From: Methyloglobulus sp.
GTDB taxonomy: Bacteria; Pseudomonadota; Gammaproteobacteria; Methylococcales; Methylomonadaceae
Length of the DNA stretch: 24,000 bases
NCBI RefSeq assembly: GCF_040079455.1
Contig: NZ_JBEBKJ010000002.1
Location: 47,544-71,543, forward strand
Reading direction: 5' to 3'
The notes under the pieces are model-generated. The model worked only from the letters and a program-made list of their open reading frames with translations, searched no databases and was not told the origin of the DNA. Positions 3,638 to 21,079 of the stretch are shown here, piece by piece. How positions within the stretch are numbered: the stretch's first letter is position 1; each line of letters opens with the position of its first letter. Made by a program: the position numbers and the translations under genes.

Positions 3638-3662
3638 GCGGTGGCTAAACCGTCGTTTGTTG

Positions 3663-3731
3663 TGTAAATTGACATTAAAGTATCATACTTACAATAAAGA
3701 GTCATACTAAACAAAAAAGTATCATCCTTAA
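3663..3731 (+). repeat. Tn7-like right end: terminal TGT plus three abutting ~22-bp putative TnsB-binding repeats
   Basis: Three direct repeats occur at about 20-bp periodicity: TGACATTAAAGTATCATACTTA (3670-3691), TACAATAAAGAGTCATACTAAA (3690-3711) and AACAAAAAAGTATCATCCTTAA (3710-3731). They resemble the Tn7 ACAATAAAG-type sites. An 8-bp terminal TGTAAATT precedes the first site, as TGTGGGCG does in Tn7. The exact terminus is ambiguous among the TGTs at 3658, 3661 and 3663. Confidence 0.75.
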
Positions 3732-3780
3732 GGTGTACTAAGTTAAACTAAGTCTATCGGAATAGCTTAGGACACCTACC

Positions 3781-4638: not shown

Positions 4639-6727
4639 TGTTTATTCGCTTGAAAGTCAGCGGATTAGAGTGCTTTGGTCAAATATGCAAATCGTATTTT
4701 GGATCGATATTGACGATGACAAAGCACTGCCTAAATTAGCTCCAAAAAGTGAGTTAGAACACTTGATGGCAAAAGGTTCTCTGAAAGCGATTGATGATCC
4801 GCATATATCTCTGGCCCTTAATTCGCCTCCACCAGGATCATTGGCCGAGCAAGTCCAAGCTAAAGCTTGGAATGCGATCAAAGAGATTGTGATCCGAGAG
4901 CCAGAAATATACTACCGTAAAACAAGAGGCCCTTTGTTTAATAAGGTACTCGAAGCTAGTGGGGCTACAAAGCAAACTCTTTATCGTTGGTTGCGCCGGT
5001 ACTGGCAATTTGGGCTTTGTAGGAATGCGTTGCGCGGTCGTTTTGAAAACTGTGGGGGTGCTGGGAAAACCAAAGGTGCGGGTGATAAAAAAAGAGGCGC
5101 ACCAAGAACTCGTTCGCCTGGCACAGGCATTAATGTCGATGAACAAATTCGATTGATATTTAGGGTGGCGATTGAAAAATGTTTGCTGCATGAGGGTAAG
5201 TACGAATTTGATTATGCTTACAATCAGGTGCTAATAGCCTATGGTGTGCCAAAACCCTGCAAGCCGGAAGATATTCTTGAAGTGCCCACCGAGCGCCAGT
5301 TCCGATATTTTTATGAGAAGGAATATTCGCCTATTGAAGTCACTCGAAAACGAGAGGGGGAAATAAACTACCTGAAAGATTTTCGCCCAGTTTTGGGCAC
5401 TTCTACCGCCGAAGTAGCAGGGCCAGGAAGTCGATACCAGATTGATGCTACGATTGCTGATGTCTATTTAGTTTCTGAAAGAGATCGCGAAGAAATTGTC
5501 GGTCGGCCAACGGTTTACTTTGTCGTTGATGTTTTTAGCCGTGCAATTGTTGGATTATATGTCGGCCTTGAAAACCCATCTTGGGTCAGTGCGATGGAAG
5601 CATTGATTAATGCTGCCTGCGATAAGGTGGCGTATTGTAAAAGTTTTGGGATAGACATTACAGACGACTTGTGGCCTACAGTAGGTTTGTCAGAGGCGTT
5701 AATAGGTGATCGTGGTGAAATGTTAGGCCGCCATGTTGAAGTCATGAGCAAGGCGTTCAACATCAACATTGAAAATACACCGCCCTATAGAGCCGATTGG
5801 AAAGGAATAGTTGAGCGGTTCTTTCGGACTTCGCAAACGAAGATGAAACCATTTGTAGAAGGCTATGTAACGAAGAACCCTATAGGTAAAAAGCGGCATG
5901 GAAAAGACTATCGTCAGGATGGTATTCATACCCTGAAAGAGTTTATCCAAATGATCATTCGCATAGTCCTCTTTTATAACAATGAGCACATTGTTTCGAC
6001 TTATGACCCTGACCAGGATGTGCCGCCAACTTTACCGCACCATCCCTTAACCCTTTGGAATTGGGGAATTGAATATCGAACTGGGCGATTACGACGACCA
6101 GCGGAAGACTTAGTTCGCGTTAATCTTTTTCCGCATTCAAAAGCCACTATCACTGAGCACGGTCTACGGCTCTTTGGTTGTTATTTCAGCTGTAAAGCAG
6201 CAATTGAATTTGGGTGGTTCGAAGGAAATTACAAAGGATCGAAAATCGTCATTGTTGCTTACGATTTTTACTCTATTAACAAAATTTACATCCGGTCTAA
6301 CGATTCATTCTCCGAGTACATCGAAGCCGAATTGACCGAACGTAGTCGGGAATATCGAGATTTAACAATTTGGGAGGTTTGGAATCGAAATGATGTTAAA
6401 GCGGAGACAGCTGCTGTATCCAAACTTACGAAACGAGCCGGATCAGTAAATTTGGTCACTGAACTCGAAGCAATAGCTAAGCAATCAAGGGACAATCAGC
6501 CAGCTGTGAAGAAGAAAACCAAGCTAGAGAGGGTAAGAGGGATAAAGGACAATAAAAAAGCTGAACGCCAATATGAGCGTACTAAAAAAGCAATTAACGG
6601 TGAAGCGGCAAAAACTGCCTTACATGATAACGTGATTCCCATTCGGGAGGAAGAATCTCGTCGAGTGAGTTTTAAACTACCAACAAGGTTGAAAGACTTG
6701 CTAAAGGAGGACTCTCAGGATGAATAA
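4616..6727 (+). CDS. tnsB: Tn7 transposition protein TnsB (DDE transposase)
   Basis: 703 aa. DDE/RNase-H-fold signatures are present: YQIDATIADV, IGDRGEM and YRADWKGIVERFF. There is an N-terminal HTH-like segment (TLYRWLRRYW). The start may be any of the ATGs at 4616, 4622 or 4631. Confidence 0.9.
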   Translation: MNMFMPNDVYSLESQRIRVLWSNMQIVFWIDIDDDKALPKLAPKSELEHLMAKGSLKAIDDPHISLALNSPPPGSLAEQVQAKAWNAIKEIVIREPEIYYRKTRGPLFNKVLEASGATKQTLYRWLRRYWQFGLCRNALRGRFENCGGAGKTKGAGDKKRGAPRTRSPGTGINVDEQIRLIFRVAIEKCLLHEGKYEFDYAYNQVLIAYGVPKPCKPEDILEVPTERQFRYFYEKEYSPIEVTRKREGEINYLKDFRPVLGTSTAEVAGPGSRYQIDATIADVYLVSERDREEIVGRPTVYFVVDVFSRAIVGLYVGLENPSWVSAMEALINAACDKVAYCKSFGIDITDDLWPTVGLSEALIGDRGEMLGRHVEVMSKAFNINIENTPPYRADWKGIVERFFRTSQTKMKPFVEGYVTKNPIGKKRHGKDYRQDGIHTLKEFIQMIIRIVLFYNNEHIVSTYDPDQDVPPTLPHHPLTLWNWGIEYRTGRLRRPAEDLVRVNLFPHSKATITEHGLRLFGCYFSCKAAIEFGWFEGNYKGSKIVIVAYDFYSINKIYIRSNDSFSEYIEAELTERSREYRDLTIWEVWNRNDVKAETAAVSKLTKRAGSVNLVTELEAIAKQSRDNQPAVKKKTKLERVRGIKDNKKAERQYERTKKAINGEAAKTALHDNVIPIREEESRRVSFKLPTRLKDLLKEDSQDE

Positions 6728-8366
6728 TGAAACTCAGACTAGATTTCCGGAAGCGAACTATATCGATCCTGGATTACCTGAATATGCTGAAAATCCATGT
6801 ATCGCAGCTTTACCACCAATTATGGATGAGTATAGTGTCGTGAAGCTACTGACTCAACGGCCCAGTATCAGCGAAGTAGAAAAATATTTACCGGGCCACA
6901 TTCGAGTACATGTAATTAGTCGGCTAACCAAGAATTTCTTTCAACCGCTCACAACGCATCTTCATCTGGAGCGAAAACTCTCATTACTGATTCGACAGGG
7001 TTATCTGGGTAGAAACCCAAAATATCCCGACTTTAAAAAACATCTCAATAACTGCTATCAAAAGATCATAAAGCAGGATTTGGAAGTATACGTTCATGAC
7101 GATGTAGATTCAACTGCGTCTTCAATGTCTGTTGTAGGTATTTCTGGTACGGGTAAATCGACGACTTTTAACATAATTTTAAAAACCTATCCGAAAGTAA
7201 TTTATCACCCTGATTATAATTTGATCCAAATACCCTGGATAAAAGTGGATTGTCCGCACGATGGGACGCTGACTGAGTTTTGCTATAGATTTTTTATGGC
7301 TTTAGATCGTCGGCTTAATACAAATTACCGACAAAAGATTGGTTCCGGACGTCCTAGCATTGGTAAGTTGATTGCCGAACTTGCCAACCTATGCCTTATT
7401 CATGCAGTAGGTTTGTTGGTGATTGATGAGTTTCAACATATGAACCTTGCTAAAAGTGGCGGCGAAAAAAAGATGATCAACTTTTTGGTTACCTTGGTAA
7501 ATACCATAGGGGTGTCAGTGATATTGGTCGGCACACCAAAGGCTTTGCCTATTTTTGCCGGTGAATTTCGTCAAGCAAGAAGGGCATCGGGCGAAGGCAG
7601 TATCGTTTGGAACCGAATGCCGTATGATGAAAGTTGGGATGATTTTATCGATGAAATGTGGTCATTTCAGTGGTTGAGAAATATGCAGCCACTAAATGAA
7701 GCGATTAGAAATAAGCTCTATGAACTATCACAGGGTATTGCCGATATAGTCGTAAAGTTGTTCTGTTTGGCGCAAGCACGCTCAATTTTGCTTGCTCAGT
7801 CCGCGGACGATGAATTCATTTCCGTTGAGCTTTTGGAAGACGTATTCGAGGAGGAGTTTTCAACCGTGGGTCCAATGTTGGAGGCTTTGAGAGAAAATAA
7901 TGAACGAAAGCTCCGAGAGTGCGCTGACCTAGTTTTGCCTGATATCGAAGGAAAACTGCTAAATACCTTCGACCACTTAAAAAAGCAAACGGTAACAAAA
8001 CCCATAATTGTCGAAACTGGGGATGCGGAAGAGTCTGGTTTTGCGACAAGTGCATTAAAAGCATTAACCGCAATGGGCATTAATCAAGATATTGCCTTGC
8101 CATTGATTGCCGAATCAATCCAAAACAATCCAAATTTAACGCTCATTCAAGTGGTGCATGCAGTTACCAGTTTAATGACAATCACAGAACAAGAGCAAAA
8201 ACCAAAAAATAATCGACCAAAAATGGCATTGGTAAAATCTTCTAATTGGGGGCAGCTAAATGGAGATGACCTGCGAAAAGTACAATTCGTTAAAACAGCA
8301 ACTATGTATGAATCATTAGTGGAGTCTGGCTTCATCTATCCCGTGGAAAATTTATTAGCAGGCTAG
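6720..8366 (+). CDS. tnsC: Tn7 transposition protein TnsC (AAA+ ATPase regulator)
   Basis: 548 aa with Walker A GISGTGKST and Walker B LLVIDEFQH. The start overlaps the tnsB stop (6720 versus 6727), suggesting translational coupling. Confidence 0.9.
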   Translation: MNNETQTRFPEANYIDPGLPEYAENPCIAALPPIMDEYSVVKLLTQRPSISEVEKYLPGHIRVHVISRLTKNFFQPLTTHLHLERKLSLLIRQGYLGRNPKYPDFKKHLNNCYQKIIKQDLEVYVHDDVDSTASSMSVVGISGTGKSTTFNIILKTYPKVIYHPDYNLIQIPWIKVDCPHDGTLTEFCYRFFMALDRRLNTNYRQKIGSGRPSIGKLIAELANLCLIHAVGLLVIDEFQHMNLAKSGGEKKMINFLVTLVNTIGVSVILVGTPKALPIFAGEFRQARRASGEGSIVWNRMPYDESWDDFIDEMWSFQWLRNMQPLNEAIRNKLYELSQGIADIVVKLFCLAQARSILLAQSADDEFISVELLEDVFEEEFSTVGPMLEALRENNERKLRECADLVLPDIEGKLLNTFDHLKKQTVTKPIIVETGDAEESGFATSALKALTAMGINQDIALPLIAESIQNNPNLTLIQVVHAVTSLMTITEQEQKPKNNRPKMALVKSSNWGQLNGDDLRKVQFVKTATMYESLVESGFIYPVENLLAG

Positions 8367-8368
8367 TT

Positions 8369-9901
8369 ATGCTTGCTTACTTTCCACAACCTTACCCAGA
8401 TGAGCTTCTTTATAGCGTAGTTGCCCGATATGCTGTGCACACAGGGCAAGATAACCAAAAAGCAGTAATTAGGGATATTTTTGGTTCAAACTCTGCCGCG
8501 GCAGTACCCGATATGCCGAGCCACATTGACCGCCTCATATCAGCAACTAAAGCTATATGGCGAACTAGCCCAGAACACATAATTAGTCAAAACACGCTTG
8601 CACCGTTTTACCTCCCGTTTCTGGCACCCGAGAAAGCAGATTCCGTGGTTAACTCAATGCGATCTGCGCAAGGTGGTGATATTCATACCAGGGCTGGCAT
8701 TGCAGCTTCAACTATCAAGCGCCCCATTTACTTTCGTTATTGCCCAAAGTGTGTTGAAGAACAAATAAAGGTTTACGGCGAGCCCTATTGGAAGAGACAA
8801 AACCAAGTAACAGGCTTGGGGTTTTGTTCAGCGCACATGACTAAATTGATCAACTCAGACGTTGAATTTCACCCGAAATCTAAGCATTTGTTTGTTCCTG
8901 CGGCATTGGTCAATTTAACACAGGTAGTCGAATGTTTAGTGGGTTCTTCAAAGGAGCTGCAATTGAACAAGCACGTTGAAATTTTGTTAAACAATCCAAT
9001 TAATATCCGGCTGACTCATTGGCAATGGACATTATTTTATCGCAATTTGGCAAAGCATCATGGGTTATTGAATGGCATAAGGGCTGATCATTCAGCAATT
9101 AACTTACTGATTAAGGATTGTTGGCATTCGTCTCCTGTTTTTGCGCTGATTCCATTTGAACAGCCGGAAAATTTATGGCTTGCGAATATCTTTAGAAAGC
9201 ATAGAAAATCGTTTTATCCCATTAGACACGCTATGGTTTGGGTGGCTTTAGCTCCTGATTTATCAACCACCGAAATATTATCCCAGGTGGCTAATTATCC
9301 AGTCCAACCAGAACGGAGAAAACAATTTACTTCATTACCTGCTTCAGATCAGGAGGTTTCAATAAAACGAGTTTTATGGCGTAATCTTACCATTAAGAAT
9401 CCTGACTGCGGTGTAAAGCGACTTCGTATCCTGGAAAGCGGAAGTGCTCTGTATACATGGTTGTATCGTCACGATTACAATTGGTTAATACAAAATAAGC
9501 CAAGAAAATCCGTTAACCCGCCAAAGAATAAAACTGATTACGAAAAACTAGATTCAGATGTTCTAAATGAACTTGTTACCATAAAGTCAGGTTTCCATAC
9601 ATTGAATGACCGTCCTAGACTGTCACGAACATTCTTGCTCCGTCAATTGGCAAGATATAGCAGTATTGAAAAATATTTGAAAAGGCTTCCGATAACGCGA
9701 GAGTGGCTCGAAAAAGAATCAGAGTCAATCGAAGATTTTCAGATTTATCGCCTGAGCAAAGTTGCATTGGAAATGCGAAAGTCAGGAATAGAATTGCAGG
9801 CGTGGAAACTCATACGGGCTGCTGGATTAAAACCGCAAAAAATACCTCCCCGAATTTATTCAATCATTGATAGTTTAGTGTCTGAAAAGAAGCTTAGATG
9901 A
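8369..9901 (+). CDS. tnsD: TnsD / TniQ-family target-site selector
   Basis: 510 aa; Tn7 TnsD is about 508 aa. It has a TniQ-type N-terminus (FPQPYPDELLYSVVARY) and a zinc-finger-like CPKC...CSAH motif. It sits after tnsC, and the element lies at a glmS attTn7 site. Confidence 0.85.
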   Translation: MLAYFPQPYPDELLYSVVARYAVHTGQDNQKAVIRDIFGSNSAAAVPDMPSHIDRLISATKAIWRTSPEHIISQNTLAPFYLPFLAPEKADSVVNSMRSAQGGDIHTRAGIAASTIKRPIYFRYCPKCVEEQIKVYGEPYWKRQNQVTGLGFCSAHMTKLINSDVEFHPKSKHLFVPAALVNLTQVVECLVGSSKELQLNKHVEILLNNPINIRLTHWQWTLFYRNLAKHHGLLNGIRADHSAINLLIKDCWHSSPVFALIPFEQPENLWLANIFRKHRKSFYPIRHAMVWVALAPDLSTTEILSQVANYPVQPERRKQFTSLPASDQEVSIKRVLWRNLTIKNPDCGVKRLRILESGSALYTWLYRHDYNWLIQNKPRKSVNPPKNKTDYEKLDSDVLNELVTIKSGFHTLNDRPRLSRTFLLRQLARYSSIEKYLKRLPITREWLEKESESIEDFQIYRLSKVALEMRKSGIELQAWKLIRAAGLKPQKIPPRIYSIIDSLVSEKKLR

Positions 9902-11481
9902 GTCAAATTACTTTCACAAATATACCCAAGGGATCAAAACTAATTCTTATGGGAGATTTTTTTCGAACACCAGGTGAAGATTGGCGTGTGACATGTTATT
10001 TTTTAGCCAACCGAAACAAGCCTTTTCGAAAAGCAATGCCAGTTGACCTGCTACCTGCCCTCAGTGTTGGTTCAATTTATCCCAGAGCTACCGATGTGAA
10101 TGCGGCTCATGGTTATAGAGGTAGGTTTGTGATCCCTAATGGTTATCAATGGGATCAATTGCAATATCACGATCTACCAAAAAGCTTGCAGCGGCTGAAT
10201 GAATATGAAGGACAATTGAAAAACCAAAATATATATCGCATAAGTGTTGCTGATAAGGTTTTTTGGTTACCTACTTTAGAACTCGCCCGTCGATTGCATT
10301 TTCACTCAGCTGAGCTAGTGCGTACCGCGTTTCTTCAAGCAAACACTTTATCGTTAGCACGAGCAACGCTTGAAAGCTGGGTGGGACGGGTTGATTTTAC
10401 ATCAAATATTCCACTGTCTTATATGAATAGTCAGGAATACCGCAAGTATTTCGCTTGGTTGTTATTTGACCAAGAAGCTCAAAATAGTTTTTGTTCCATT
10501 TTTAAACATTTAAATAGAGAAAGTCGCTTTGACAATCAGGTTGAGAGGTGGAGCTTTAACTTTTCTCCGCCTGCGATGGCCGGTTGTGAAATTTCATGGG
10601 TAGGTTATACAGGCACTGACAGTGAGCAAAATCACTATTACATTCGTGAAATTCTTGCAATTGCTGCATTACCTTCGCCTCCAGTCAACAGGGTATGGTT
10701 TAGTCATCCTGACGATGTATTAGTCTTAAATGAAGAGGGGGTTGGGAACAACAAAGAAAAATCTGGTAAAAAGGTTGTTCAACCAAAACAAATCGATCCA
10801 GTACAAGCTTCCATAGCAAGTCAAAAACGATATTTATTAGAAATTAATCGTGCCGGGTTGCATTTTGATACAGATATTGAGCTAAAACGCAGTTCAAGGC
10901 GGGTACAGATTTATCCAAAAGACGAAGAAACAGCGTTGGATTCAATGGATGTTGAAGAAACTGTGGGAATTACGGAAGGCAAAATCGCAGGAACTCTACC
11001 GCGTGCCGATATTGATTTGCTTAAAGAAAGAGAACTCATCGAAGCACCAGAAAAAATGAAGTTTTTTAGCCGAATGCTTGAAGGGCTGAAGGAATTCAAC
11101 GAATGGGATTATCAGGTTAAATTAGGAACAGTGCCACAATGTAACTGTCGAACAGCTCACCTAATCGACGGACGAAAGCGCCAATATAGCCATGTAATGC
11201 TTCAGCGAGATTCTGATACTATGGTACACATCCTTGAAATCGAACTAAAACAGGATGAAAGCCTATCAACGTTACTCTTTCGCTCCAACGCGGTAGAAGA
11301 TTCCCTAGAGTTGATTCTTGATGGGTTGATGCGAAATTCAATCAAATGGGATAGAGGAATTATTGCTGAGCAAACTACTGCCCGGCATTACTTAGACCAT
11401 CCAGACAGAAAAATAAAAAGTGAAGATGATGCACTGACATCCTGGGTTGCGCGAGCTAGCCAGAAAATTGTTACCCTCTAG
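9898..11481 (+). CDS. tnsE: TnsE-like target selector (replication/conjugation-directed pathway)
   Basis: 527 aa with an ATGA overlap with tnsD. Several blocks match my recollection of Tn7 TnsE (538 aa). LPTLELARRLHF matches IPQLELARSLFL. AWLLFDQEAQNSFCSIFKH...VERWSFNFSPPAMAG matches VWLFSDQDVMDSYESIFRH...VESWCFSFDPPPMQG. The C-terminal HILEIELKQDESLSTLLF matches VLLEVDASDGVKMLSTKVL. Confidence 0.75.
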   Translation: MSQITFTNIPKGSKLILMGDFFRTPGEDWRVTCYFLANRNKPFRKAMPVDLLPALSVGSIYPRATDVNAAHGYRGRFVIPNGYQWDQLQYHDLPKSLQRLNEYEGQLKNQNIYRISVADKVFWLPTLELARRLHFHSAELVRTAFLQANTLSLARATLESWVGRVDFTSNIPLSYMNSQEYRKYFAWLLFDQEAQNSFCSIFKHLNRESRFDNQVERWSFNFSPPAMAGCEISWVGYTGTDSEQNHYYIREILAIAALPSPPVNRVWFSHPDDVLVLNEEGVGNNKEKSGKKVVQPKQIDPVQASIASQKRYLLEINRAGLHFDTDIELKRSSRRVQIYPKDEETALDSMDVEETVGITEGKIAGTLPRADIDLLKERELIEAPEKMKFFSRMLEGLKEFNEWDYQVKLGTVPQCNCRTAHLIDGRKRQYSHVMLQRDSDTMVHILEIELKQDESLSTLLFRSNAVEDSLELILDGLMRNSIKWDRGIIAEQTTARHYLDHPDRKIKSEDDALTSWVARASQKIVTL

Positions 11482-11671
11482 TACTTATATCTGTTTTAGG
11501 TATGATTTGACAGAAGAAGGTCGCTTCATGGCGGATTCAAGTTTTTGGATCATCCTTAGGCAATTATCAGAACTGAAACTGGCTTTGATAATCTCAACAG
11601 CAGGAGCGGAGACCGTTTCACCGCCCAATCCAGATTAGGACCTGTCGTTAAACTGCTGGATGGCGATTTCA

Positions 11672-12388
11672 TTAAATCCACCGCAATAATACCGCCTTAA
11701 CCACCGCCGCTGTTTTATTGTGAGTGCCTGTTTTTTGCAGCACATTATTGATATGAAAATTTACCGTTCGTTCGGTAATTCCCATTTGCGTAGCAATTTC
11801 ATGTGCAGATTTACCTTCCGCAGACCAACGCAGCACCTCAACCTCGCGTTGGGTTAAGGGATTTTCGCTAGCGATAGCAAAATCCTGGGCAGCTAACTTA
11901 TATAACCCCTGATGGGCTAATTGGGTAAGCCAAGAAAAGAGCATTTGCTTATCCGCCAATTCATTCGCCTGCAAAGCCTCACCTGATCGGGCTAACGTTA
12001 ACATACCCAAAAATCCGTCAGCATTGCAGTAAGATTGCGACCAGCCGTGATCTATGCCAAATTCTTTGGCATCTTCCCAAAAATCGGGGGCAGACCCAAG
12101 TAAGCTGCTAGACCAGATTAAGGGGAAGGTTGAGCGACTGCCATGCTGAACGACAGGGTCAACGGCAAAATAGTTATTTTTTACATAACGGATTTGCCAG
12201 TCTGATGAATAGTTGGATAACCAAATGGTTTTTGGGTTCATCACCGGATAGGGCGCACGTAAACCAAACGCGCAATAATCGAAACCCAAAACGCTAGCTG
12301 TTGTGGCTAAATGCTCGAAGAAATCCTTCTGGTTGTCGGCGAACAAAAGTAGTTCCAGGTGTTCTTCCAACCATTTCTGTATATTCAT
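11672..12388 (-). CDS. LuxR-family transcriptional regulator with an N-terminal autoinducer (AHL)-binding domain; no luxI in the window (LuxR solo)
   Basis: 238 aa. The N-terminal domain has conserved AHL-pocket-type residues (WLSNYSSDWQIRYVKNNYFAVDPVV, PLIWS, GFLGMLTLAR). The C-terminus has the GerE/LuxR HTH (LTQREVEVLRWSAEGKSAHEIATQMGITERTVNFHINNVLQK). Confidence 0.88.
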   Translation of the reverse strand: MNIQKWLEEHLELLLFADNQKDFFEHLATTASVLGFDYCAFGLRAPYPVMNPKTIWLSNYSSDWQIRYVKNNYFAVDPVVQHGSRSTFPLIWSSSLLGSAPDFWEDAKEFGIDHGWSQSYCNADGFLGMLTLARSGEALQANELADKQMLFSWLTQLAHQGLYKLAAQDFAIASENPLTQREVEVLRWSAEGKSAHEIATQMGITERTVNFHINNVLQKTGTHNKTAAVVKAVLLRWI

Positions 12389-12508
12389 ATTAAAAGACCT
12401 ATGCCTTAAACAAACAAGCTAATCAAGAATTAGGGTGCTACAAAAACATAACGTTTAACTGCGGAATAATTCGGGCACAAAATAAATTATACAGAGTTGC
12501 AAACGGAT

Positions 12509-12528
12509 ACCTGTCAAAATTGACAGCT
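12509..12528. promoter_or_regulatory. lux-box-like 20-bp palindrome in the luxR / cargo-array intergenic region
   Basis: ACCTGTCAAAATTGACAGCT has 7-bp perfect inverted arms (CTGTCAA/TTGACAG) and fits the CTG-N10-CAG lux/las-box pattern. It is flanked by a perfect 10-bp inverted repeat carrying extended -10-like TGTATAAT boxes that face outward. One (12484-12493, minus strand) points toward luxR. The other (12566-12575, plus strand) points toward the cargo genes. Confidence 0.5.
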
Positions 12529-12579
12529 ATGCAAATGCTATAAATTAAGATTTAATGCCTTTAAATGTATAATTTGAAG

Positions 12580-12692
12580 CATTACGTTCAAGTGGGACGC
12601 GCCTTATTTGGTGGATTTGAAGGGTTGTTATTTTTCGGCTTCGGTGGCTTCGCCAATCTTCCGTAACAAGCGCGCCCTTCTTTACGTTAGCT
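12580..12692 (+). repeat. attC-like imperfect palindrome, copy 1 (~105 bp)
   Basis: The 5' arm is CATTAC-GTTCAAGTGGGACGCGCC and the 3' arm is GCGCGCCCTTCTTTAC-GTTAGCT. The arms pair imperfectly with unpaired bases on the 5' arm. It is about 80% identical by eye to copy 2. It ends in GTTAGCT, close to the integron core GTTRRRY. No recognisable R'' box lies upstream. Confidence 0.5.
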
Positions 12693-12702
12693 ATTACAAA
12701 GG

Positions 12703-13257
12703 ATGCATGGGTTGAACCGGCAATTACAAGCTGAACTGCTATCAATGCAAGAAGAAGATCAACGCATCCTGCAAGAGTTGATTGACAGTGGAGAGCTCGG
12801 CACTGTTGAGTATCACCCAAGAATTAAGGCAATCCACGAAAAGAACAATGTACGCATCAAAGAAATCATAAGTCGCCACGGATGGCCTGGAATAAGTTCC
12901 GTTGGCAAGGAAGGTTCGGAAGCCGCGTGGCTGATTGTTCAGCACGCGGTATTAGATACAAAATTTATGAATGAATGTTTAACTTTGTTACAGGAAGCCG
13001 TCCATCAAGGCGAAGCAGAAGGATGGTGCTTCGCCTATTTGCAAGATAGAGTGCTTACTATGTCTGGTAAGCCGCAAATATATGGAACTCAACACGACAC
13101 TGACGAAAATGGTATTGCCTTTCCTTTGCCTATGAAAGAGCCAGGAAAAGTTGATTTGCTGCGCCAAGAAGTGGGGCTTGAGCCTCTATCCGAAGCCACT
13201 AAACGCATTCAGGAAAGACAAAATGCAACTAAGAGTAATCGTGAAACCAATGGCTAA
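12703..13257 (+). CDS. Hypothetical protein (cassette-like ORF bracketed by the two long attC-like repeats)
   Basis: 184-aa ORF with a weak RBS (AAAGG) upstream. Its stop codon TAA lies inside GGCTAAC, the R''-like box of repeat copy 2. I recognise no catalytic motif. Confidence 0.7.
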   Translation: MHGLNRQLQAELLSMQEEDQRILQELIDSGELGTVEYHPRIKAIHEKNNVRIKEIISRHGWPGISSVGKEGSEAAWLIVQHAVLDTKFMNECLTLLQEAVHQGEAEGWCFAYLQDRVLTMSGKPQIYGTQHDTDENGIAFPLPMKEPGKVDLLRQEVGLEPLSEATKRIQERQNATKSNRETNG

Positions 13258-13368
13258 CATTACGCTCAAGCGGGACGCGCCTTTTCGTGGCGGTTTTGAA
13301 GGCTTGTGTTTTTCCGGCTTCGGCGGCTTCGCCAACCTTCCGTGACAGGCGCGCCCCTTAGCTTAGTC
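13252..13368 (+). repeat. attC-like imperfect palindrome, copy 2 (~115 bp)
   Basis: The 5' side reads GGCTAAC (R''-like, contains the upstream stop codon), ATTAC, then GCTCAAGCGGGACGCGCC. The 3' side reads GGCGCGCCCCTTAGC then TTAGTC. Positions 13264-13281 pair with 13348-13362. This leaves C13267, C13271 and A13275 unpaired. The inner part (GAAGGCTTG / CAACCTTC) also pairs. Confidence 0.55.
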
Positions 13369-13397
13369 ACCATAATTTTAACCACTCGGGTAAACAC

Positions 13398-14168
13398 ATG
13401 AGCCATATACATTTCAATAAGATGGTCGCTTCAATTTTCTTGATAGCGATCTTTATTCTTCCGCGACAGGCACAAACATCGGAACTTCCCTACAAGGCGG
13501 TAGCTTTCGATTATTTCGTCATCTTTGACCCCAACTCAGTCGTTGGCGAAGTTGAAAAAGTTTTTCCTGGCAAAGGCATGGATTTCACCAAAGCGTGGCG
13601 TGCCAAACAATTTGAATATGGCTTCCTGCGCTCCATCACAAAAAATCACGAGGACTTTTTTAAAGTTACAGAAGATGCCTTGCTTTACACCATTGAGAAT
13701 ATGAAACTTGAAGCGACCCAAGCCCAGAAAAAGCAACTTCTTATTGCCTATCTATCGCTAAAGCCCTGGCCTGATTCAATTGAAGGCTTGAAAAAGCTGA
13801 AAGCTGCTGGCATAAAAATCATCACTATCTCCAATTTTAGCAAGATGATGCTTAAGTCCAATGCAGATAGTGCTGGAATTGCCGATCTTTTTGATGAGCT
13901 AATAAGTACTGAAATCAACGGCACATACAAACCAGACCCAGAGGCGTACGCATTAGGACTACAACACCTTGGGTTGAAGAAAGAGGATGTTGTCTTCGCG
14001 GCTTTTGGCGGTTGGGATGCCTACGGTGCAAAAAGTTTTGGCTACCCGACTTATTGGGTCAATCGCTTCAACTTACCAACGGAAAAATTAGGTATTCAGG
14101 CAGACGGGACAGCCAATAATTTTCAAGGCTTAGTGGACTTTGTTTTGGGCGAAAAAACACATCATTAA
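13398..14168 (+). CDS. HAD-superfamily hydrolase, type II haloacid dehalogenase-like, with N-terminal signal-like segment
   Basis: 256 aa. The nucleophile motif AFDYFVIFD resembles FDAYGTLFD of L-2-haloacid dehalogenases. GTYKPD and the C-terminal FGGWDAYGA motifs are also present. The hydrophobic N-terminus MVASIFLIAIFILPRQAQT looks like a signal peptide. Confidence 0.8.
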   Translation: MSHIHFNKMVASIFLIAIFILPRQAQTSELPYKAVAFDYFVIFDPNSVVGEVEKVFPGKGMDFTKAWRAKQFEYGFLRSITKNHEDFFKVTEDALLYTIENMKLEATQAQKKQLLIAYLSLKPWPDSIEGLKKLKAAGIKIITISNFSKMMLKSNADSAGIADLFDELISTEINGTYKPDPEAYALGLQHLGLKKEDVVFAAFGGWDAYGAKSFGYPTYWVNRFNLPTEKLGIQADGTANNFQGLVDFVLGEKTHH

Positions 14169-14233
14169 ACAATGGCGCAATAACTTTTAGCATCCGCAGT
14201 ACAGCAGAGATATACATGTTATGTTGATGCCGC

Positions 14234-14270
14234 CCAAGCGGGACGGTTGCTATCACGGCCGTCCCCTTGG
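14234..14270 (+). repeat. Short attC-like hairpin, copy 3 (same family as copies 1 and 2)
   Basis: CCAAGCGGGACGG (14234-14246) pairs with CCGTCCCCTTGG (14259-14270), with C14239 bulged and a 12-nt loop. It shares the AAGCGGGACG / CCCCTT core with copies 1 and 2. A canonical GTTAGAC lies 25 bp downstream (14295-14301). There is no T-run, so it is not a typical terminator. Confidence 0.45.
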
Positions 14271-14320
14271 TTCTAAATTAGGATTATTGTTAACGTTAGA
14301 CAACACTAGGAGAACATCAG

Positions 14321-14824
14321 ATGACTGAACGAATCAACTACTGGAAGCTAATTGGCCCAGAGGCCACGCTGTTGACCCAGATCGAAGACCAACTCAACCA
14401 CGGGCCGTTGGATTTACGCCTCCTGGAAATGGTTCGGCTGCGTGCGTCACAGATCAATGGTTGCGGTTTCTGCGTGCGATACCATTCGCAGCGCCTGCGA
14501 ATGCTGGGTGAAACGGAAGAGCGCATTGACCTTATCATCGCTTGGCGTGAAGCCCCCTGTTACAGCGAACGAGAACAAGCCGTGCTGCAATGGGCGGAAA
14601 CGATCACGCAGCTGTCGGATCACCGACATGTTCCTGATGCGCTGTATGAGCAAACTCGCCAATTTCTGAATGAGGAAGAATTGGCCTCGTTAACGCTCGC
14701 TGTGGCAATGGCGAACGTCTGGAATCGCATCGCCGTAGCTTTTCGCACGGATCATTCATCCATTGAGACCTTACTGAAAGCAGCCGACAATATGGTGCAA
14801 TATTCAGAGCAAAAAATGGGTTAG
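14321..14824 (+). CDS. Carboxymuconolactone decarboxylase / AhpD-like family protein
   Basis: 167 aa with the CGFCVRYH motif (CxxCxxxH) typical of the AhpD-like core. A good AGGAG RBS lies upstream. Confidence 0.8.
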   Translation: MTERINYWKLIGPEATLLTQIEDQLNHGPLDLRLLEMVRLRASQINGCGFCVRYHSQRLRMLGETEERIDLIIAWREAPCYSEREQAVLQWAETITQLSDHRHVPDALYEQTRQFLNEEELASLTLAVAMANVWNRIAVAFRTDHSSIETLLKAADNMVQYSEQKMG

Positions 14825-14882
14825 ACGTAAAAATCCAACGGTTTTTGTACATTGATGGGCATTAATTGCAATAGGAAGTCAC

Positions 14883-15557
14883 ATGAGTAAACTAAGACAT
14901 TTGGTACTGCTAGCACTATTTAATGCCGTTTTTGTTGTTAATTCTGCCAACGCAGCATCCCATAAAATTGGAATTTTAGTGTTTGATGGCTTTTTGACGA
15001 GTGATGTCACCGCACCTATCGAAGTATTTGGTGCAGCAACAAAGAAGGCGTGGTTCTCCTCTTACGAGGTCGTCGTCATTTCTGCAACAACAAATAAGGA
15101 GGTTCGTTCAGAAGAAGGGCTGAAAATAATCGCTGATAAAACCATTTACGATGATCTCAAGCTTGATGTGTTGTTAGTTCCGAGCGCTTACGAAATGGAT
15201 GGTTTTTTGAAAAACAAGGAACTTATCCAGTTTATTAAAAAACAAAATCAATCGGCATCCTGGATGGCAAGCAACTGCTCCGGTGCATTTTTACTCGGCG
15301 AGGCTGGCGTTCTTGATGGGAAAAATGCAACGACTTGGGCGGGGGGAGAAAAAGGCCTCTCAAAAGCCTACCCCAATATAAAAGTTCAGTCTGACCAAAA
15401 TGTGGTTATTGACAATAAGGTTATCACCTCAAATGGCGGCCCCGTTAGTTATCAAGCGGCATTCATATTGTTGGCAAAGCTAAGTTCCGAAAAATTCTCA
15501 CAAGAAATTACAGATGCAATACAGTTTAATAGGCTCAAAAGTGCATTCAAGCCATAG
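14883..15557 (+). CDS. DJ-1/PfpI family protein with Sec-type signal peptide
   Basis: 224 aa. The nucleophile-elbow Cys context is ASNCSGAFLLGEAGVLDG. The N-terminus LVLLALFNAVFVVNSANA/AS looks like a cleavable signal peptide. Confidence 0.8.
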   Translation: MSKLRHLVLLALFNAVFVVNSANAASHKIGILVFDGFLTSDVTAPIEVFGAATKKAWFSSYEVVVISATTNKEVRSEEGLKIIADKTIYDDLKLDVLLVPSAYEMDGFLKNKELIQFIKKQNQSASWMASNCSGAFLLGEAGVLDGKNATTWAGGEKGLSKAYPNIKVQSDQNVVIDNKVITSNGGPVSYQAAFILLAKLSSEKFSQEITDAIQFNRLKSAFKP

Positions 15558-15580
15558 TCATCCATCCAGAGGTATTTTCA

Positions 15581-15874
15581 TTGTTTGTCGTAATATTCCG
15601 GGCAAAAGTACGTAGTGTTGACAGCGAGTATTCGGCGGTTGCTGCGAGGCTGCGTGAATTGGCATTAGGCCAGTTTGGCTGCCTCGACTTTCAGGCCGTC
15701 ACCGAGGGGGAAAATGAAATAGCGCTTTCCTATTGGCCAAACGAAGAAAGCATTCTGGCTTGGAAGTCACATTCGGAGCATGTCTTGGCGCAACAACTGG
15801 GCAGGGAGCGCTGGTATGAGTCTTATACTGTGCAAGTGGCAGAGATTACCCGTGAGTACCGTGTGCCTCTCTAA
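15581..15874 (+). CDS. Antibiotic-biosynthesis-monooxygenase (ABM) / dimeric alpha-beta-barrel domain protein
   Basis: 97 aa with a TTG start and an AGAGG RBS about 8 nt upstream. The pattern FVVIFRAKV...LSYWPNEESILAWKSHSEH is typical of small ABM-domain proteins. Confidence 0.65.
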   Translation: MFVVIFRAKVRSVDSEYSAVAARLRELALGQFGCLDFQAVTEGENEIALSYWPNEESILAWKSHSEHVLAQQLGRERWYESYTVQVAEITREYRVPL

Positions 15875-15925
15875 CATGGCATCCAATGGAACACCGTCAT
15901 TTGGCACGCTTAAGGTATTCTAAAA

Positions 15926-16981
15926 ATGATACTGAGTAGTCTCCTGGTACGAGCCCTATTGGTTTTCTTTGGGATATGTGGTCTGGCTGCGATAGTGGGC
16001 AGCGTTTATCAAATGCAGGCAAGCGCCGCCGATTTAAAAGCGCATCCTGTACCGGGACGTATGGTTAACGTCAATGGGCTGAACTATCACCTGAACTGCA
16101 CAGGCACAGGCACAGGTTCGCCAACGAGTATTTTGGAAGCCGGTTTGGGGGAAAGTGCCTTGAGCTGGTATCCGGTTCAAGCTAAACTCGCCCAAACAAC
16201 ACAAGTTTGCGCATACGATCGCGCCGGACTTGGATGGAGTGACCCGGCGGACGGCCCGATGTCGCTAGAGCAAGTTGCAACAAACTTGCATACGCTGCTT
16301 CGCAATGCATCGATTATGTCACCCTTTGTGTTGGTTTGCCATTCACGCGGCGGAATATTTTGCCGCCAGTTTTATCGCCAGTTCCCCAGTGAAGTGAAAG
16401 GCTTGGTTCTTGTTGATTCCACGCACGAACAAGGCGCTTTTCGGGAGTATCCTTATGCGCAAGCAGACTATTTTAAACAAAGAATCCAGATTGCCATTGC
16501 GCCTTTGCTGTCCCGTATTGGGGTTATTCGCTTGATGGGTTGGGCAAACGCTGACCGACAGCCATCACCTTTGCCTGCCGATATTTTGGCAGCGAAAACA
16601 GCCGTTCAAAACCGTACCGATACAACCCTCGCCGTCGTCAACGAAATAGCCGTGATGCGGAAAAGCTTGGATGCAGCGACCCCGCCGCCATCTTCGCTGG
16701 GCAAGCTGCCGCTGGTTGTATTGACTGCAGGCAAAGGAATAGATATTGGGTTGGCTGAACGTGAAGCCATAGCATCGAATAGTTCGGTAGAAAATGCCGT
16801 GGCAGTTGCACGTATTGAAAGCACGTCGCAGGAAGAATTGGCGGCCCTTTCATCAAACAGCAAGCATGTTATAGCGGATAGAAGTGGGCATTTCATTATG
16901 TATGACCAGCCTGACCTGTTGGTAAGCAATGTATTGGAACTATTGAATTCTGTTCGTTGTCTGTCCCCGCGTGATTGTTGA
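15926..16981 (+). CDS. Alpha/beta hydrolase with N-terminal membrane anchor or signal
   Basis: 351 aa. The N-terminus is hydrophobic (LLVRALLVFFGICGLAAIVG). The nucleophile-elbow-like motif is VCHSRGG, and DSTHE and a late H (GHFIMYDQP) follow. Confidence 0.75.
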   Translation: MILSSLLVRALLVFFGICGLAAIVGSVYQMQASAADLKAHPVPGRMVNVNGLNYHLNCTGTGTGSPTSILEAGLGESALSWYPVQAKLAQTTQVCAYDRAGLGWSDPADGPMSLEQVATNLHTLLRNASIMSPFVLVCHSRGGIFCRQFYRQFPSEVKGLVLVDSTHEQGAFREYPYAQADYFKQRIQIAIAPLLSRIGVIRLMGWANADRQPSPLPADILAAKTAVQNRTDTTLAVVNEIAVMRKSLDAATPPPSSLGKLPLVVLTAGKGIDIGLAEREAIASNSSVENAVAVARIESTSQEELAALSSNSKHVIADRSGHFIMYDQPDLLVSNVLELLNSVRCLSPRDC

Positions 16982-16983
16982 AG

Positions 16984-17817
16984 ATGATGACGCCCATTAA
17001 GCCAGTGAAATATAGCCAGTTCGGTGCCGATAAGGGGCAGATAGTGATCTACTTCCACGGTGCGCCTGGAGCGCCGGAAGAATGTGCCATTTTTGATTCT
17101 TATGCAAAAGATAAGGGTTTGACGATTATTTGTTTAGAGCGGTTTTCTATTGATTGCTCAATAAGTGGAGAAGCGTATTATCAGTTCCTGGCCAGGGAGA
17201 TTTCAACATTGGCCGACGGTAAATCGGTAGATTTTATTGGTTTCTCCATCGGTGCGTTCATCGCCTTTCAGACTAGCCGTTATATGGCTGATGGTGTCAG
17301 GAACATGCATTTGATTTCTGCGGCTGCGCCGTTGGAAGCGGGAGATTTTATAAACGCGATGGCAGGTAAACAGGTTTTTAAACTAGCCAAGGCATTTCCA
17401 GGATTGTTCGTTTTGTTGTCATACTGGCAAAGCTTGCTGGCTCTATTTTCCGCCAAGACACTATTTAATTTGTTGTTTGCCAGTGCCGCTGTTGCTGACA
17501 AAGCATTGGTCAACGACCGTGAGTTCCAAGCCAGTATCACCAACGTATTGCGGTCGTGTTTTATTGGCCACATCCAAGGCTATGTGCGTGACATAAAAGC
17601 GTATGTACAACCTTGGGAAACCACACTTTCTGACATTTCCGTCAATACGCACATCTGGCATGGGGCGGAGGATAACTGGTCGCCAACGCCGATGGCTGGC
17701 TACTTGAAATCAGCGATTCCGGGTTGCTCACATATCGAAATAATGGAAGGTTTGTCGCATTACTCATGTCTGTATGAAGCCGTGCCAAAAATATGCAGGC
17801 AATTGGGCAAGGCTTAA
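16984..17817 (+). CDS. Alpha/beta hydrolase
   Basis: About 277 aa. It has an HGAPG oxyanion-type motif, a GFSIGA (GxSxG) nucleophile elbow and a late GLSHY histidine. The start is uncertain: TTG at 16975 or 16978, or ATG at 16984 or 16987. It abuts or overlaps the upstream stop at 16979-16981. Confidence 0.75.
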   Translation: MMTPIKPVKYSQFGADKGQIVIYFHGAPGAPEECAIFDSYAKDKGLTIICLERFSIDCSISGEAYYQFLAREISTLADGKSVDFIGFSIGAFIAFQTSRYMADGVRNMHLISAAAPLEAGDFINAMAGKQVFKLAKAFPGLFVLLSYWQSLLALFSAKTLFNLLFASAAVADKALVNDREFQASITNVLRSCFIGHIQGYVRDIKAYVQPWETTLSDISVNTHIWHGAEDNWSPTPMAGYLKSAIPGCSHIEIMEGLSHYSCLYEAVPKICRQLGKA

Positions 17818-17873
17818 AATACAATCAATGCTCTTACCTTTTCGGTAGCATTTCAAGGAAATCGAGAACGAAC

Positions 17874-18476
17874 ATGTACAAACTTTATGACTTTTTACCT
17901 TCAGGAAATTGCTACAAAATTCGCCTTTTGCTTAATCAATTAGGCATTGACTATGAGCGGGTCAATGTTGATATTTTAAATAAAGAATCGCGTACGCCGG
18001 AGTTCCTAAAAATTAACCCTAATGGCCGCACGCCTGTTCTGTATCATGACGGGAAGTATCTTGCTGAGTCCAATGCGATTTTAGGGTATCTGGCTTCAGA
18101 TACCCACTTTTTACCTAAAGGCAAATACGAGCAAGCCCTGGTTTTGCAGTGGATGTTCTTTGAGCAATATAGTCATGAGCCTAATATCGCAACCCCACGA
18201 TATTGGGTGTCAATACTGAAGGCCGAAGAAGAATACAGGGAACAGCTGACAGCAAAAATGAAGCTCGGCTATGCTGCATTGGATGTCATGGAACAGCATT
18301 TGGCAATCAACACTTATTTTGTGGCTAACCAGTACAGTGTTGCGGATATTGCCTTGTATGCTTATACCCATGTTGCAGAAGAAGGCAAGTTTGATTTGTC
18401 AGGATACAGTAGTATACAGGCATGGTTTAAACGGGTTGAGAGCCAAGAAAACCATATTGACATTAAAAAAAGTTAA
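17874..18476 (+). CDS. Glutathione S-transferase family protein
   Basis: About 200 aa counted from the internal ATG at 17874. The longer listed ORF from 17793 overlaps the previous gene. It has a thioredoxin-like N-domain (YKLYDFLPSGNCYKIRLLLNQLGIDYE...GRTPVL) and a helical C-domain. Confidence 0.8.
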   Translation: MYKLYDFLPSGNCYKIRLLLNQLGIDYERVNVDILNKESRTPEFLKINPNGRTPVLYHDGKYLAESNAILGYLASDTHFLPKGKYEQALVLQWMFFEQYSHEPNIATPRYWVSILKAEEEYREQLTAKMKLGYAALDVMEQHLAINTYFVANQYSVADIALYAYTHVAEEGKFDLSGYSSIQAWFKRVESQENHIDIKKS

Positions 18477-18534
18477 CAAAACACTCAACCGAACGTGGTT
18501 ACAATGCAGTTTTATTTTTTAGAGGGATACTTAC

Positions 18535-18948
18535 ATGCTTTCACTATTTGAAAAACCAAATGCTCTATTAAGATTAGAAGGCTTAGGCATTTTTCTTCTG
18601 GCACTTACCGTCTATTGGCAGCAGTCGTTTGACTGGACGCTATTTTGGTCAACCGTTTTGCTACCGGATTTAGCGCTTCTTGGGTACCTTGTTAATGCCC
18701 GGGTTGGCGCAGTCACTTACAATATCACCCACTCAAAATTGTTGCCTTGCGCTCTGGCTTTGGTCTCGGTCGCAGAAGGTGACACCTTAGCCTTGGCATT
18801 GTCACTTATTTGGTTCATTCACATTGGTGTTGATCGGCTGTACGGTTACGGCCTGAAATACCCAGAAGGATTCAAAATTACCCATCTTGGTGTTATTGGG
18901 CAAGTAAGCAACGTAACCTTTGGCCGTTACTTACCTTGTGGAAAATAA
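18535..18948 (+). CDS. Small integral membrane protein (DUF4260-like)
   Basis: 137 aa with several hydrophobic helices. The motifs LLPDLALLGYL, YNITHS and HIGVDRLYGYGLKY...THLG match my recollection of the DUF4260 family. Confidence 0.6.
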   Translation: MLSLFEKPNALLRLEGLGIFLLALTVYWQQSFDWTLFWSTVLLPDLALLGYLVNARVGAVTYNITHSKLLPCALALVSVAEGDTLALALSLIWFIHIGVDRLYGYGLKYPEGFKITHLGVIGQVSNVTFGRYLPCGK

Positions 18949-19042
18949 ATGAAGTTTAACCAGTGCACGGGCTATACGGTTCTATTTTTCAGCTTTCTAT
19001 GCCCGGTTAGCTTTATCTTAGCCATCATAGAAGAGAGAAGCC

Positions 19043-19351
19043 ATGCTTGAACTCAGGCCAGCCTGTGAGCATTGCAACAAGCCGTTGCCGCCCGATTCAC
19101 TTGAAGCACGTATCTGTAGCTATGAATGTACGTTCTGTGCCGCCTGTGTCGACACTATCCTGGGTAACGTTTGCCCGAACTGCGCTGGTGGCTTTGTACC
19201 TAGGCCCATCAGGCCGTCCAAGAACTGGAAAAGCGATAACTATCTTGGCAAAGACCCGGCGAGTACCCAGATCAAGCACAGACCCGTTGACCAGGAAGAT
19301 CATGCGCGGTTTACGGCTGAAATTAGGTTAATACCACCCGAAAAGCGGTAA
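19043..19351 (+). CDS. Cys-rich DUF1272-like protein
   Basis: 102 aa. The pattern MLELRPACEHCNKPLPPDS...CSYECTFCAACV...CPNCAGGFVPRP is typical of DUF1272 zinc-ribbon-like proteins (from memory). Confidence 0.7.
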   Translation: MLELRPACEHCNKPLPPDSLEARICSYECTFCAACVDTILGNVCPNCAGGFVPRPIRPSKNWKSDNYLGKDPASTQIKHRPVDQEDHARFTAEIRLIPPEKR

Positions 19352-19452
19352 CCCAAAAACTGGAAAGGGGATAATCCTGTAATTGAAGTTACAGCTTAGT
19401 CTGCCTGTCTCATCCACATTGAGTATCTCTCAGTAAAATTTATATAAGGAAA

Positions 19453-19827: not shown

Positions 19828-19832
19828 ACGCT

Positions 19833-21019: not shown

Positions 21020-21079
21020 GGTTAAAATAGCGATGGAATGAATTGAAAGTCTTTAACTTACTTGCTTTGGAGAACAACG

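Follow-up and report, generated by a model that had tools for sequence, protein, structure and literature searches.

The lux box of Vibrio fischeri is centred at -42.5 (PMC3376562). In Pseudomonas aeruginosa, qscR is divergent from PA1897, a QscR site lies in the intergenic region, and PA1897 is directly activated in a manner dependent on acyl-homoserine lactone (AHL) (PMC4211393), while MmsR is a class B LuxR solo of Methylomonas which responds to 3-OH-C10-HSL of Methylobacter (PMC10134790). Tn7 carries a class 2 integron together with its tnsABCDE module (PMC7500258), and clusters of attC sites lacking an integron integrase are known as CALINs, the expression of whose cassettes is an acknowledged open question (PMC4889954). 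Here we describe a locus of Methyloglobulus sp. that can be compared with each of these systems. The window, by which we mean the whole stretch of 24,000 nt that was analysed (contig NZ_JBEBKJ010000002.1, positions 47,544 to 71,543), contains a luxR gene that is divergent from an array of attC cassettes across an intergenic region of 314 bp (12389-12702). We consider it moderately probable, from sequence comparisons, that this region is a luxI/rsaM-type, LuxR-dependent promoter whose original target is gone and which today stands at the head of an attC array without integrase. The features concerned are listed below; those described in an earlier note on this DNA were all found where that note had placed them.

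11672-12388, minus strand: luxR, encoding an AHL-type LuxR-family receptor/regulator of 238 aa
12389-12460, minus strand: conserved luxR leader, with the palindrome CTAATCAAGAATTAG at 12419-12433
12486-12491, minus strand: luxR-side TATAAT, 17 nt from the box, which would be centred at about -39.5; no usable -35
12509-12528: lux box ACCTGTCAAAATTGACAGCT, a clade-type operator of the form CTGTCA-N4-TGACAG
12545-12573, plus strand: TTAAGA-17-TATAAT, sigma-70-like, matching 10/12 consensus positions, with its -10 at 12568-12573
12551-12556, plus strand: TTTAAT, the proposed -10, at an offset of 22 from the box, with a predicted start at about 12562-12564
12581-12692, plus strand: attC copy 1, from the ATTACG spacer through R' GTTAGCT (12686-12692), with TTGAAGC replacing R''
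12703-13257, plus strand: open reading frame (ORF) of cassette 1, DUF6624 (Pfam, 3e-30)
13252-13368, plus strand: attC copy 2, with R'' GGCTAAC followed by L''/L', and CTTAGTC left by the deletion of TTTACG before R'
13398-14168, plus strand: ORF of cassette 2, haloacid dehalogenase type II (NCBIfam TIGR01428, 172.6 bits, cutoff 125.4)
14231-14301, plus strand: attC remnant, consisting of a hairpin (CCCAAGCGGGACGG / CCGTCCCCTTGG, one base bulged) and, after another 25 nt, GTTAGAC

The product of luxR matches the Pfam families Autoind_bind (PF03472, E=8e-35, residues 20-160) and GerE (PF00196, E=3e-20, residues 177-232). It aligns essentially over its full length to the QscR, RhlR, SdiA, LasR and TraR chains, its best solved relatives being QscR (3szt, E=3e-48) and RhlR. 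Nine residues define the quorum-sensing (QS) members of the LuxR family (W57, Y61, D70, P71, W85, G113, E178, L182 and G188 of TraR; PMC10134790). All nine are present in the window protein as W64, Y68, D77, P78, W92, G115, E182, L186 and G192, and are invariant in an alignment of 16 sequences that includes 15 relatives; a BLASTP alignment with LasR yields a mapping that agrees with W60, Y64, D73, P74, W88 and G113. From the intact pocket residues only, we infer that this protein binds an acyl-homoserine lactone. The protein is rare among public sequences: apart from an identical entry, its 90% cluster has three other members, of which one is a fragment of 49 aa; there is one relative at 85% identity, and none of the others exceeds 58%. 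Among the GTDB representatives scanned, the best genome match is a metagenome-assembled genome of Methylococcales at 55%. GlmS of the window falls into one cluster, at 90% or more, with a protein from a metagenome-assembled genome of Methyloglobulus, and a methanotroph of the Gammaproteobacteria is the most likely host.

Among 80 loci of LuxR relatives that were fetched (these and other loci are designated by L numbers), most are arranged as luxR divergent from rsaM (DUF4902) and luxI. Such an arrangement is also found in the nearest relatives outside the small clade that shares the window's architecture (below, the platform clade), at 55-58% identity (L004 and L007). Searches by tblastn with LuxI and RsaM of L004 found neither luxI nor rsaM in the window, in the 20 kb of L158, or in L159, L001, L002 and L003, and no Autoind_synth domain was detected by Pfam in the window ORFs scanned. 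The receptor is a solo so far as the window and the 20 kb of L158 show.

Candidate operators were scored out of 16 against the clade consensus ACCTGTCA....TGACAGGT, with 300 shuffles as a control. The window box scores 15/16 and is the only site in the window reaching 13, which is the maximum across the shuffles, and a single site scoring at least 13/16 was found in 308 kb of unrelated metagenome DNA. The loose pattern CTG-N10-CAG alone is not significant (7 matches in the window versus 3.98 expected). Of the 80 loci of relatives, most have a box of the CTGTCA-N4-TGACAG type beside luxR, rsaM or luxI. In L004, which encodes a LuxR 58% identical to that of the window, the box directly preceding luxI matches the window box at 18/20 positions. 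In terms of asymmetry (ACCTGT...CAGCT), the window box resembles luxI boxes read toward their target, the box of L004 having the same orientation. TTGACA occurs in both arms, at 12520-12525 on the plus strand and 12517-12512 on the minus strand.

The luxI promoters of 30 relatives were aligned at the lux box, and in 26 of them a hexamer of the form nnnAAT starts 21-22 nt past the box, with two or fewer at any other offset. TTTAAT of the window occupies this position, and both the hexamer and its spacing of 22 nt are invariant in the window, L003, L158 and L159. We propose that the box and TTTAAT constitute a LuxR-dependent promoter of the luxI type, with class II geometry, which faces the array; the box would be centred at about -43/-44 relative to a start that is itself predicted from the spacing. 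The earlier note had recognized the canonical AHL-type receptor and the palindrome, which are borne out by the domain profiles, the aligned pocket residues and a score above all 300 shuffles, and it was also correct in reporting TTGACA in both arms and centre-to-centre distances of 30 and 52 bp between the palindrome and two TATAAT-containing repeats. Its statement that the spacing is non-classical is not supported, as it came from the choice of what is probably the wrong -10: the array-side TATAAT that it assigned to the box promoter is specific to the window lineage, being TAAAAT in L003, CAAAAT in L159 and CGAAGT in L158.

The 90% cluster of LuxR yielded two further contigs (L158 and L159), and the relative at 85% is encoded in L003. 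Together with the window and L001, which is 100% identical to the window over 7.9 kb and comes from a different sample of the Sequence Read Archive, these contigs represent four lineages of the platform clade:

Window and L001: R''-less attC; first gene DUF6624
L159: LuxR 92% identical; R''-less attC with a perfect 3' end; first gene TfoX_C
L003: LuxR 85% identical; R''-less attC; contig ends before the first gene
L158: LuxR 87% identical; collapsed attC remnant; first gene CMD, the third gene of the window array

All four carry luxR, the same leader, the box (identical to that of the window at 20/20 positions in L003 and L158 and at 19/20 in L159), a spacer of 22 nt, TTTAAT and the junction TTTGARRM (R = A/G, M = A/C). 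Variable columns make up 1/26 of the box and TTTAAT versus 51/166 of the rest of the intergenic region in the four lineages (Fisher one-sided p=0.0017). This conservation is supportive rather than decisive, because the lineages are related. A pairwise comparison of the window with L003 had been tried as evidence of conservation, was found to be uninformative, and was replaced by the four-lineage column test.

The array belongs to a definable attC family. Its motif ATTACGNNCAAGNGGGACGCG was found in 71 metagenome loci (L087-L157), several of which have two or three copies at ORF-sized spacing, and a profile for nhmmer was built from 37 long copies. Members of the family are about 120 nt long and consist of R'' GCCTAAC, the spacer ATTACG, L'' CTCAAGCGGGACGCGCC, a variable centre, L' GGCGCGCCCCTTAG, the spacer CTTTAC and R' GTTAGGC; short versions of 60 nt exist too. 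Within L'' three bases of the 5' arm are unmatched in the 3' arm, according to a hand pairing of copy 2 that agrees with the fold. The profile matches copy 1 at 12578-12691 (E=1e-27) and copy 2 at 13252-13364 (E=3e-36), and gives a marginal match to the remnant (14231-14259, E=0.38). Both clear copies are damaged: copy 1 has the R''-less junction also present in L159 and L003, and copy 2 lacks TTTACG before R' and also the G belonging to R'. As in many cassettes, the ORF (DUF6624) terminates within an attC site, its stop codon being part of R'' of copy 2. The family is homogeneous and widespread in freshwater and soil metagenome contigs.

Three loci of this attC family (L151, L103 and L093) encode, by tblastn, an IntI that is 50-57% identical to IntI1 and divergent from the array, and this divergent position is the one held by luxR in the window. 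The corresponding coordinates are 5968-6936 in L151, 1932-2900 in L103 and 6146-7104 in L093, where intI looks frameshifted (two tblastn segments). With an IntI1 query, tblastn found no intI in the 24-kb window, in L158 or in L159. As for attI and Pc, the integron promoter, the window intergenic region has no similarity to the intI-proximal regions of L151, L103 and L093. In comparison with an integron, the locus thus has attC sites, and neither intI nor attI and Pc were found in it. Two strong attC copies lie 674 bp apart (starting at 12578 and 13252) and are followed by the remnant; because no intI is present in the window, the array fits, as judged with the attC family profile, the definition of a CALIN (two or more attC sites within 4 kb and no intI nearby), here a decayed one. 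None of the other 71 loci of the attC family has luxR or such a box, and the association of luxR and box with attC is therefore specific to the small platform clade. A scan of metagenomes with the box plus its flank, CCTGTCAAAATTGACAGCTATGCA, gave no match.

These results bear out the earlier note in that the attC-like array consists of real, though decayed, attC cassettes and that luxR sits where intI would, and the role of Pc that it proposed for the box promoter gains comparative support, the platform being conserved while the first cassette varies.

The mechanism that we propose is as follows. The luxR product would act as an AHL-binding activator, the signal-bound dimer of which would bind the 20-bp dyad at 12509-12528; this dyad would overlap the -35 position of the promoter that has TTTAAT as its -10. 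Bound LuxR would recruit RNA polymerase, with transcription starting near 12563, and the rightward transcript would cross attC copy 1 into the DUF6624 and haloacid dehalogenase genes and possibly into further same-strand genes. The LuxR promoter would thus do for these cassettes what Pc does in an integron. Because the attC sites are degraded, the unit would behave as a fixed, quorum-gated operon, which in the window lineage is linked to tnsABCDE at glmS, and cell-density signals rather than an integron promoter would probably drive the cargo genes. The receptor family and its conserved residues, the type of operator, the spacing found in relatives, membership in the attC family and recurrence of the platform with different first genes are established by the comparisons above; that LuxR binds, that it needs AHL, where and in which direction transcription starts, and how far it reads are predictions from sequence.

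Several points weigh against this proposal. TTTAAT is a modest -10 that was selected by the spacing rule of the family, and the window also has a good sigma-70 promoter, TTAAGA-17-TATAAT, from which its array could be transcribed constitutively. Nucleotide divergence among the four lineages is low (about 5-13%), and they are not independent; the window-L003 pair alone is not significant, since at 18-21% divergence one would expect 0.13-0.27 identical runs of 27 nt. The promoter is separated from the first ORF by about 115 nt of attC sequence that is prone to form hairpins, and some LuxR-family proteins repress or act without AHL. Finally, the hairpin of the remnant (14240-14265; 10-bp, GC-rich) is terminator-like, so that read-through past about 14.3 kb is doubtful and entry into the downstream CMD/DJ-1 genes could be limited by it.

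Of the other explanations, the one that survives best is that the window array is driven mainly by TTAAGA-17-TATAAT (12545-12573), with a start at about 12580, and that LuxR, for which the box sits at about -61.5 relative to this start, either is no more than an enhancer of class I type or is without effect. This promoter, in essence the array-side one of the earlier note, is the best consensus match in the region, with 10/12 positions and a 17-nt spacer, -61.5 is a workable class I position as far as activator geometry is generally understood, and the window has the best version of the TATAAT -10 among the four lineages, as would be expected for a promoter-up change. The array-side -10 is, on the other hand, the one that is not conserved, a -10 about 39 nt past the box occurs in 0/30 of the relatives' promoters, and the conservation of the box and TTTAAT would be left unexplained. 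We therefore regard this explanation as unlikely; it can coexist with the promoter that we prefer, in that TTAAGA/TATAAT may add LuxR-independent basal expression in the window lineage.

About as unlikely, in our view, is that box and promoter are non-functional and left over from a dismantled luxR-rsaM-luxI locus, in which case luxR, if active, would regulate genes elsewhere and the downstream genes would use other promoters or be silent. The closest relatives, at or below 58% identity, are luxR-rsaM-luxI loci, so the target gene has clearly been lost, the attC sites are degraded, and the lineages are young enough for conservation to be only moderately informative. A vestige is nevertheless difficult to reconcile with a luxR that is intact in all lineages and has kept its invariant residues, or with a box and -10 that are significantly more conserved than the surrounding intergenic DNA, at a time when cassettes were being replaced and the neighbouring attC of L158 collapsed.

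We give slightly less credence again to the idea that luxR itself is the main gene under control of the box, via the TATAAT at 12491-12486 and either by occlusion of the -35 (repression) or by class II activation at -39.5/-41.5, whether or not the array is affected too. A perfect TATAAT without a usable -35 lies 17 nt from the box and is kept as TATAAT in L159 and as TATACT in L003 and L158, where the box, at a spacing of 19 nt, would be centred at about -41.5. This is offset by a spacing that is not conserved among lineages (17 or 19 nt), by the lack of a -10 at the canonical offset on the luxR side in relatives, and by a box asymmetry that matches luxI-promoter boxes read toward the array. 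Where relatives have a box upstream of luxR, the -10 is on the side away from luxR, and this rule includes the Methylomonas loci that fit MmsR-type solos. Autoregulation of luxR, as suggested in the earlier note, is thus unsupported by the geometry of the family. The 10-bp inverted repeat pointed out there (AAATTATACA at 12484-12493 and TGTATAATTT at 12566-12575) is exact in the window but is not kept as a repeat in related loci, the luxR side reading TGTATACTTC in L003 and L158, and the array side TGTAAAATTT in L003, TGCAAAATTT in L159 and CTCGAAGTTT in L158; it is best read as two separate -10-like hexamers rather than as one element.

Returning to the LuxR-dependent promoter that we favour, the platform could stem from a luxI promoter or from an rsaM promoter. 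The luxR-proximal 200 nt have no convincing homology to the luxR-rsaM intergenic regions of L004, L005, L007 and L042. In the luxR-rsaM-luxI relatives an additional box, TAGTGTGAATATTGACAGCT, which is half degenerate, precedes the start codon of luxR by about 27 nt (L004 at about 2395-2414, L005 at about 9948-9967, with equivalents in L007 and L042). It may be an autoregulatory site, and the window has no counterpart of it. A direct repeat of 17 nt at 22000-22016 (TTCCACACGGATACCTG, versus TTGCAAACGGATACCTG at 12497-12513) includes the outer half of the lux box and lies just upstream of a SnoaL gene at 22029; it contains a half-site only and is probably due to chance.

Downstream of the remnant, the following genes were identified:

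14321-20222, plus strand: same-strand run of small-enzyme genes (Pfam: AhpD/CMD, DJ-1, ABM, two alpha/beta hydrolases, GST, DUF4260, DUF1272, SnoaL, TfoX_N)
20219-21019, opposite strand: AraC-family gene, the outer bound of the run

A unit transcribed from the box promoter could extend at most over this run. In the window no attC of the family is recognisable past about 14.3 kb, and the genes there look like a packed operon of small detoxification-type enzymes. Short divergent attC candidates (for example, at 18949-19030 and 19352-19420) fold no better than shuffles, and a purpose-written finder of R''/R' pairs returned only in-gene noise and was discarded. The two alpha/beta-fold hydrolase genes overlap (15926-16981 and 16975-17817). 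Some AHL lactonases have an alpha/beta-hydrolase fold, and it is conceivable that hydrolases of the array have a quorum-quenching function under quorum control. The arrays of the window and L158 are mosaics: some blocks are common to both (88-93% identical), others occur in one of them alone. Blocks found only in the window are 12566-14304, 15558-19456 and 21580-22022, those found only in L158 contain SDR, an unidentified gene, methyltransferase/GNAT and GNAT, and most of the indel boundaries have no recognisable attC of the family.

On the other side of luxR, the window contains a Tn7-like element and its target:

Start of the window, before glmU: atpC fragment
424-1794: glmU
1808-3637: glmS
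3658-11481, plus strand: Tn7-like right end and tnsABCDE, about 20 bp past the glmS stop, with a TGT... terminus at 3658
9898-11481: tnsE, TnsE_C (Pfam)

The right end has three direct TnsB-type repeats at 3677-3730, and Pfam identifies TnsA, a Mu-transposase C-terminal domain (TnsB-like), AAA_22/TniB (TnsC), TniQ/TnsD and TnsE_C among the tns ORFs. The element is thus Tn7-like and located at attTn7, with tnsABC, tnsD and tnsE present and its right end just downstream of glmS. A search of the window for end repeats found no inverted Tn7-like left end up to 24000, and whether the luxR-array unit is true transposon cargo depends on a left end beyond the window. Exact look-ups of two cassette proteins of the window, meant to extend the contig, retrieved no record. 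No Rfam families were detected in 11400-24000. As the earlier note had stated, luxR is the first gene past tnsE, and luxI is absent from the window by both tblastn and Pfam. The family profile finds no attC remnant between luxR and tnsE; luxR as an inverted cassette is not favoured.

Homology of the window to L158, L159 and L003 stops within a few bases of the luxR stop codon (window 11668-11672; matching breakpoint coordinates are 10717-10790 in L158, 1360-1433 in L159 and 956-1029 in L003), and no recognisable attC or transposon end is found at this breakpoint. Only in the window and L001 is luxR flanked by tnsE. In L158, L159, L003 and L002, a TetR-family gene follows luxR where the window has tnsE (assigned by Pfam in L002 and L158, by a weak Pfam match in L003 and by DNA homology in L159). 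Since other lineages carry a TetR-family gene there and the homology of the window ends at the luxR stop, these sequences indicate that the luxR-array unit predates its linkage to tnsE. The claim of the earlier note that the unit rides on a transposon can accordingly apply at most to the window lineage and not to the other three. Within the intergenic region, conservation is strongest in the luxR leader, which is nearly invariant in the four lineages, and its palindrome has the form 5-5-5. Because the other three lineages have a TetR-family gene after luxR and the window does not, the palindrome is possibly a TetR operator, left without its regulator in the copy linked to Tn7.

The window and L159 part just past the shared GTTAG of the R' of copy 1 (GTTAGCT versus GTTAGGC), which is where integrases cut. 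For this reason one could suppose that luxR, the box and the R''-less attC form a dedicated, integrase-less platform for cassette expression, in which the proximal attC is kept as a docking point, cassettes are swapped in trans by an integron integrase of the host, and the whole is mobilised by the Tn7-like element in the window lineage. We regard this extension as improbable; if true, it would constitute a new integron-like system, with a sensor of cell density in place of both intI and Pc and with new cargo coming under QS control.

The components of this locus (LuxR solos, lux-box promoters, CALINs, and Tn7 with an integron) are each known. In full-text searches of one open-access library we found no report of a LuxR/lux-box unit that heads an attC array or is linked to a Tn7-like element. 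Integron cassettes are mostly promoter-less, and the array offers a concrete answer to how integrase-less cassette arrays can be expressed: a complete QS receptor and an operator in what appears to be canonical activating geometry sit where Pc and intI would be, and they recur with different first cassettes. If functional, the module would place detoxification-type genes (haloacid dehalogenase, AhpD-like, DJ-1, GST, hydrolases) of methanotroph-related bacteria under the control of AHL signals, whether of cell density or between species. It would also represent a regulatory module recycled to domesticate cassettes into an operon, and one placed beside the transposition genes of a glmS-homing transposon.

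In terms of architecture, the cassette side of the locus is comparable to the class 2 integron of Tn7, as in both cases a cassette array lies beside tnsABCDE of a glmS-targeting transposon. In Tn7 the cassettes come after tnsE and are separated from it by a divergent gene. Unlike in Tn7, the divergent gene of the window is luxR rather than intI2, attI and Pc are lacking, and the attC family and cassettes are unrelated. The analogy is apt as geometry and is no evidence of descent. The array also differs from a typical CALIN, as it is headed by a dedicated regulator and operator and both of its clear attC copies are damaged.

The promoter side resembles the lux system of V. fischeri, in which 21 nt separate the box from the -10. 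The window likewise has a 20-bp ACCTGT...ACAG dyad located 21-22 nt upstream of a weak candidate -10 with no -35, and a luxR gene divergent from the operon that it would control. In contrast to V. fischeri, the target in the window consists of attC cassettes and not of luxI or lux genes, no synthase is present in the window, and the inner half-sites are CTGTCA/TGACAG, as in the SolR/CepR-like clade. The luxR-rsaM-luxI loci L004 and L007 share with the window a luxI box identical at 18/20 positions and the same -10 offset, and differ from it in the presence of rsaM and luxI and in DNA between luxR and the box that cannot be aligned.

Loci from organisms of the same order provide a further parallel. 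In four Methylomonas loci (L030, L048, L050 and L067, with a box at about 9877-9898) and two Methylobacter loci (L037 and L064), luxR has neither luxI nor rsaM nearby, TCTAAT lies 21 nt past the box in the direction away from luxR, and the box faces small enzyme genes (GNAT, FMN reductase-transglutaminase, methyltransferase, GFA and a LID-type hydrolase). From the organism and the gene neighbourhood, we infer that L030, L048, L050 and L067 encode MmsR. The architecture of the Methylomonas and Methylobacter loci is parallel to that of the window and probably corresponds to MmsR-type solos. The hosts belong to the same order, the LuxR proteins of the putative MmsR loci are 44-48% identical to that of the window, and a box of the same type precedes luxR by about 100 nt, its -10 lying 21 nt past the box and away from luxR. 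Unlike the window, these loci have neither attC sites of this family nor Tn7 genes.

The QscR-PA1897 system of P. aeruginosa likewise has an orphan receptor gene divergent from its neighbour with a dyad between them, and QscR (3szt) is the closest structure to the window protein. Its target, unlike that of the window, is an ordinary chromosomal operon with no attC and no transposon, and its host makes the signal. By analogy, QscR appears to be the closest functional precedent for the regulatory unit described here, and among methanotrophs this would be the solo MmsR.

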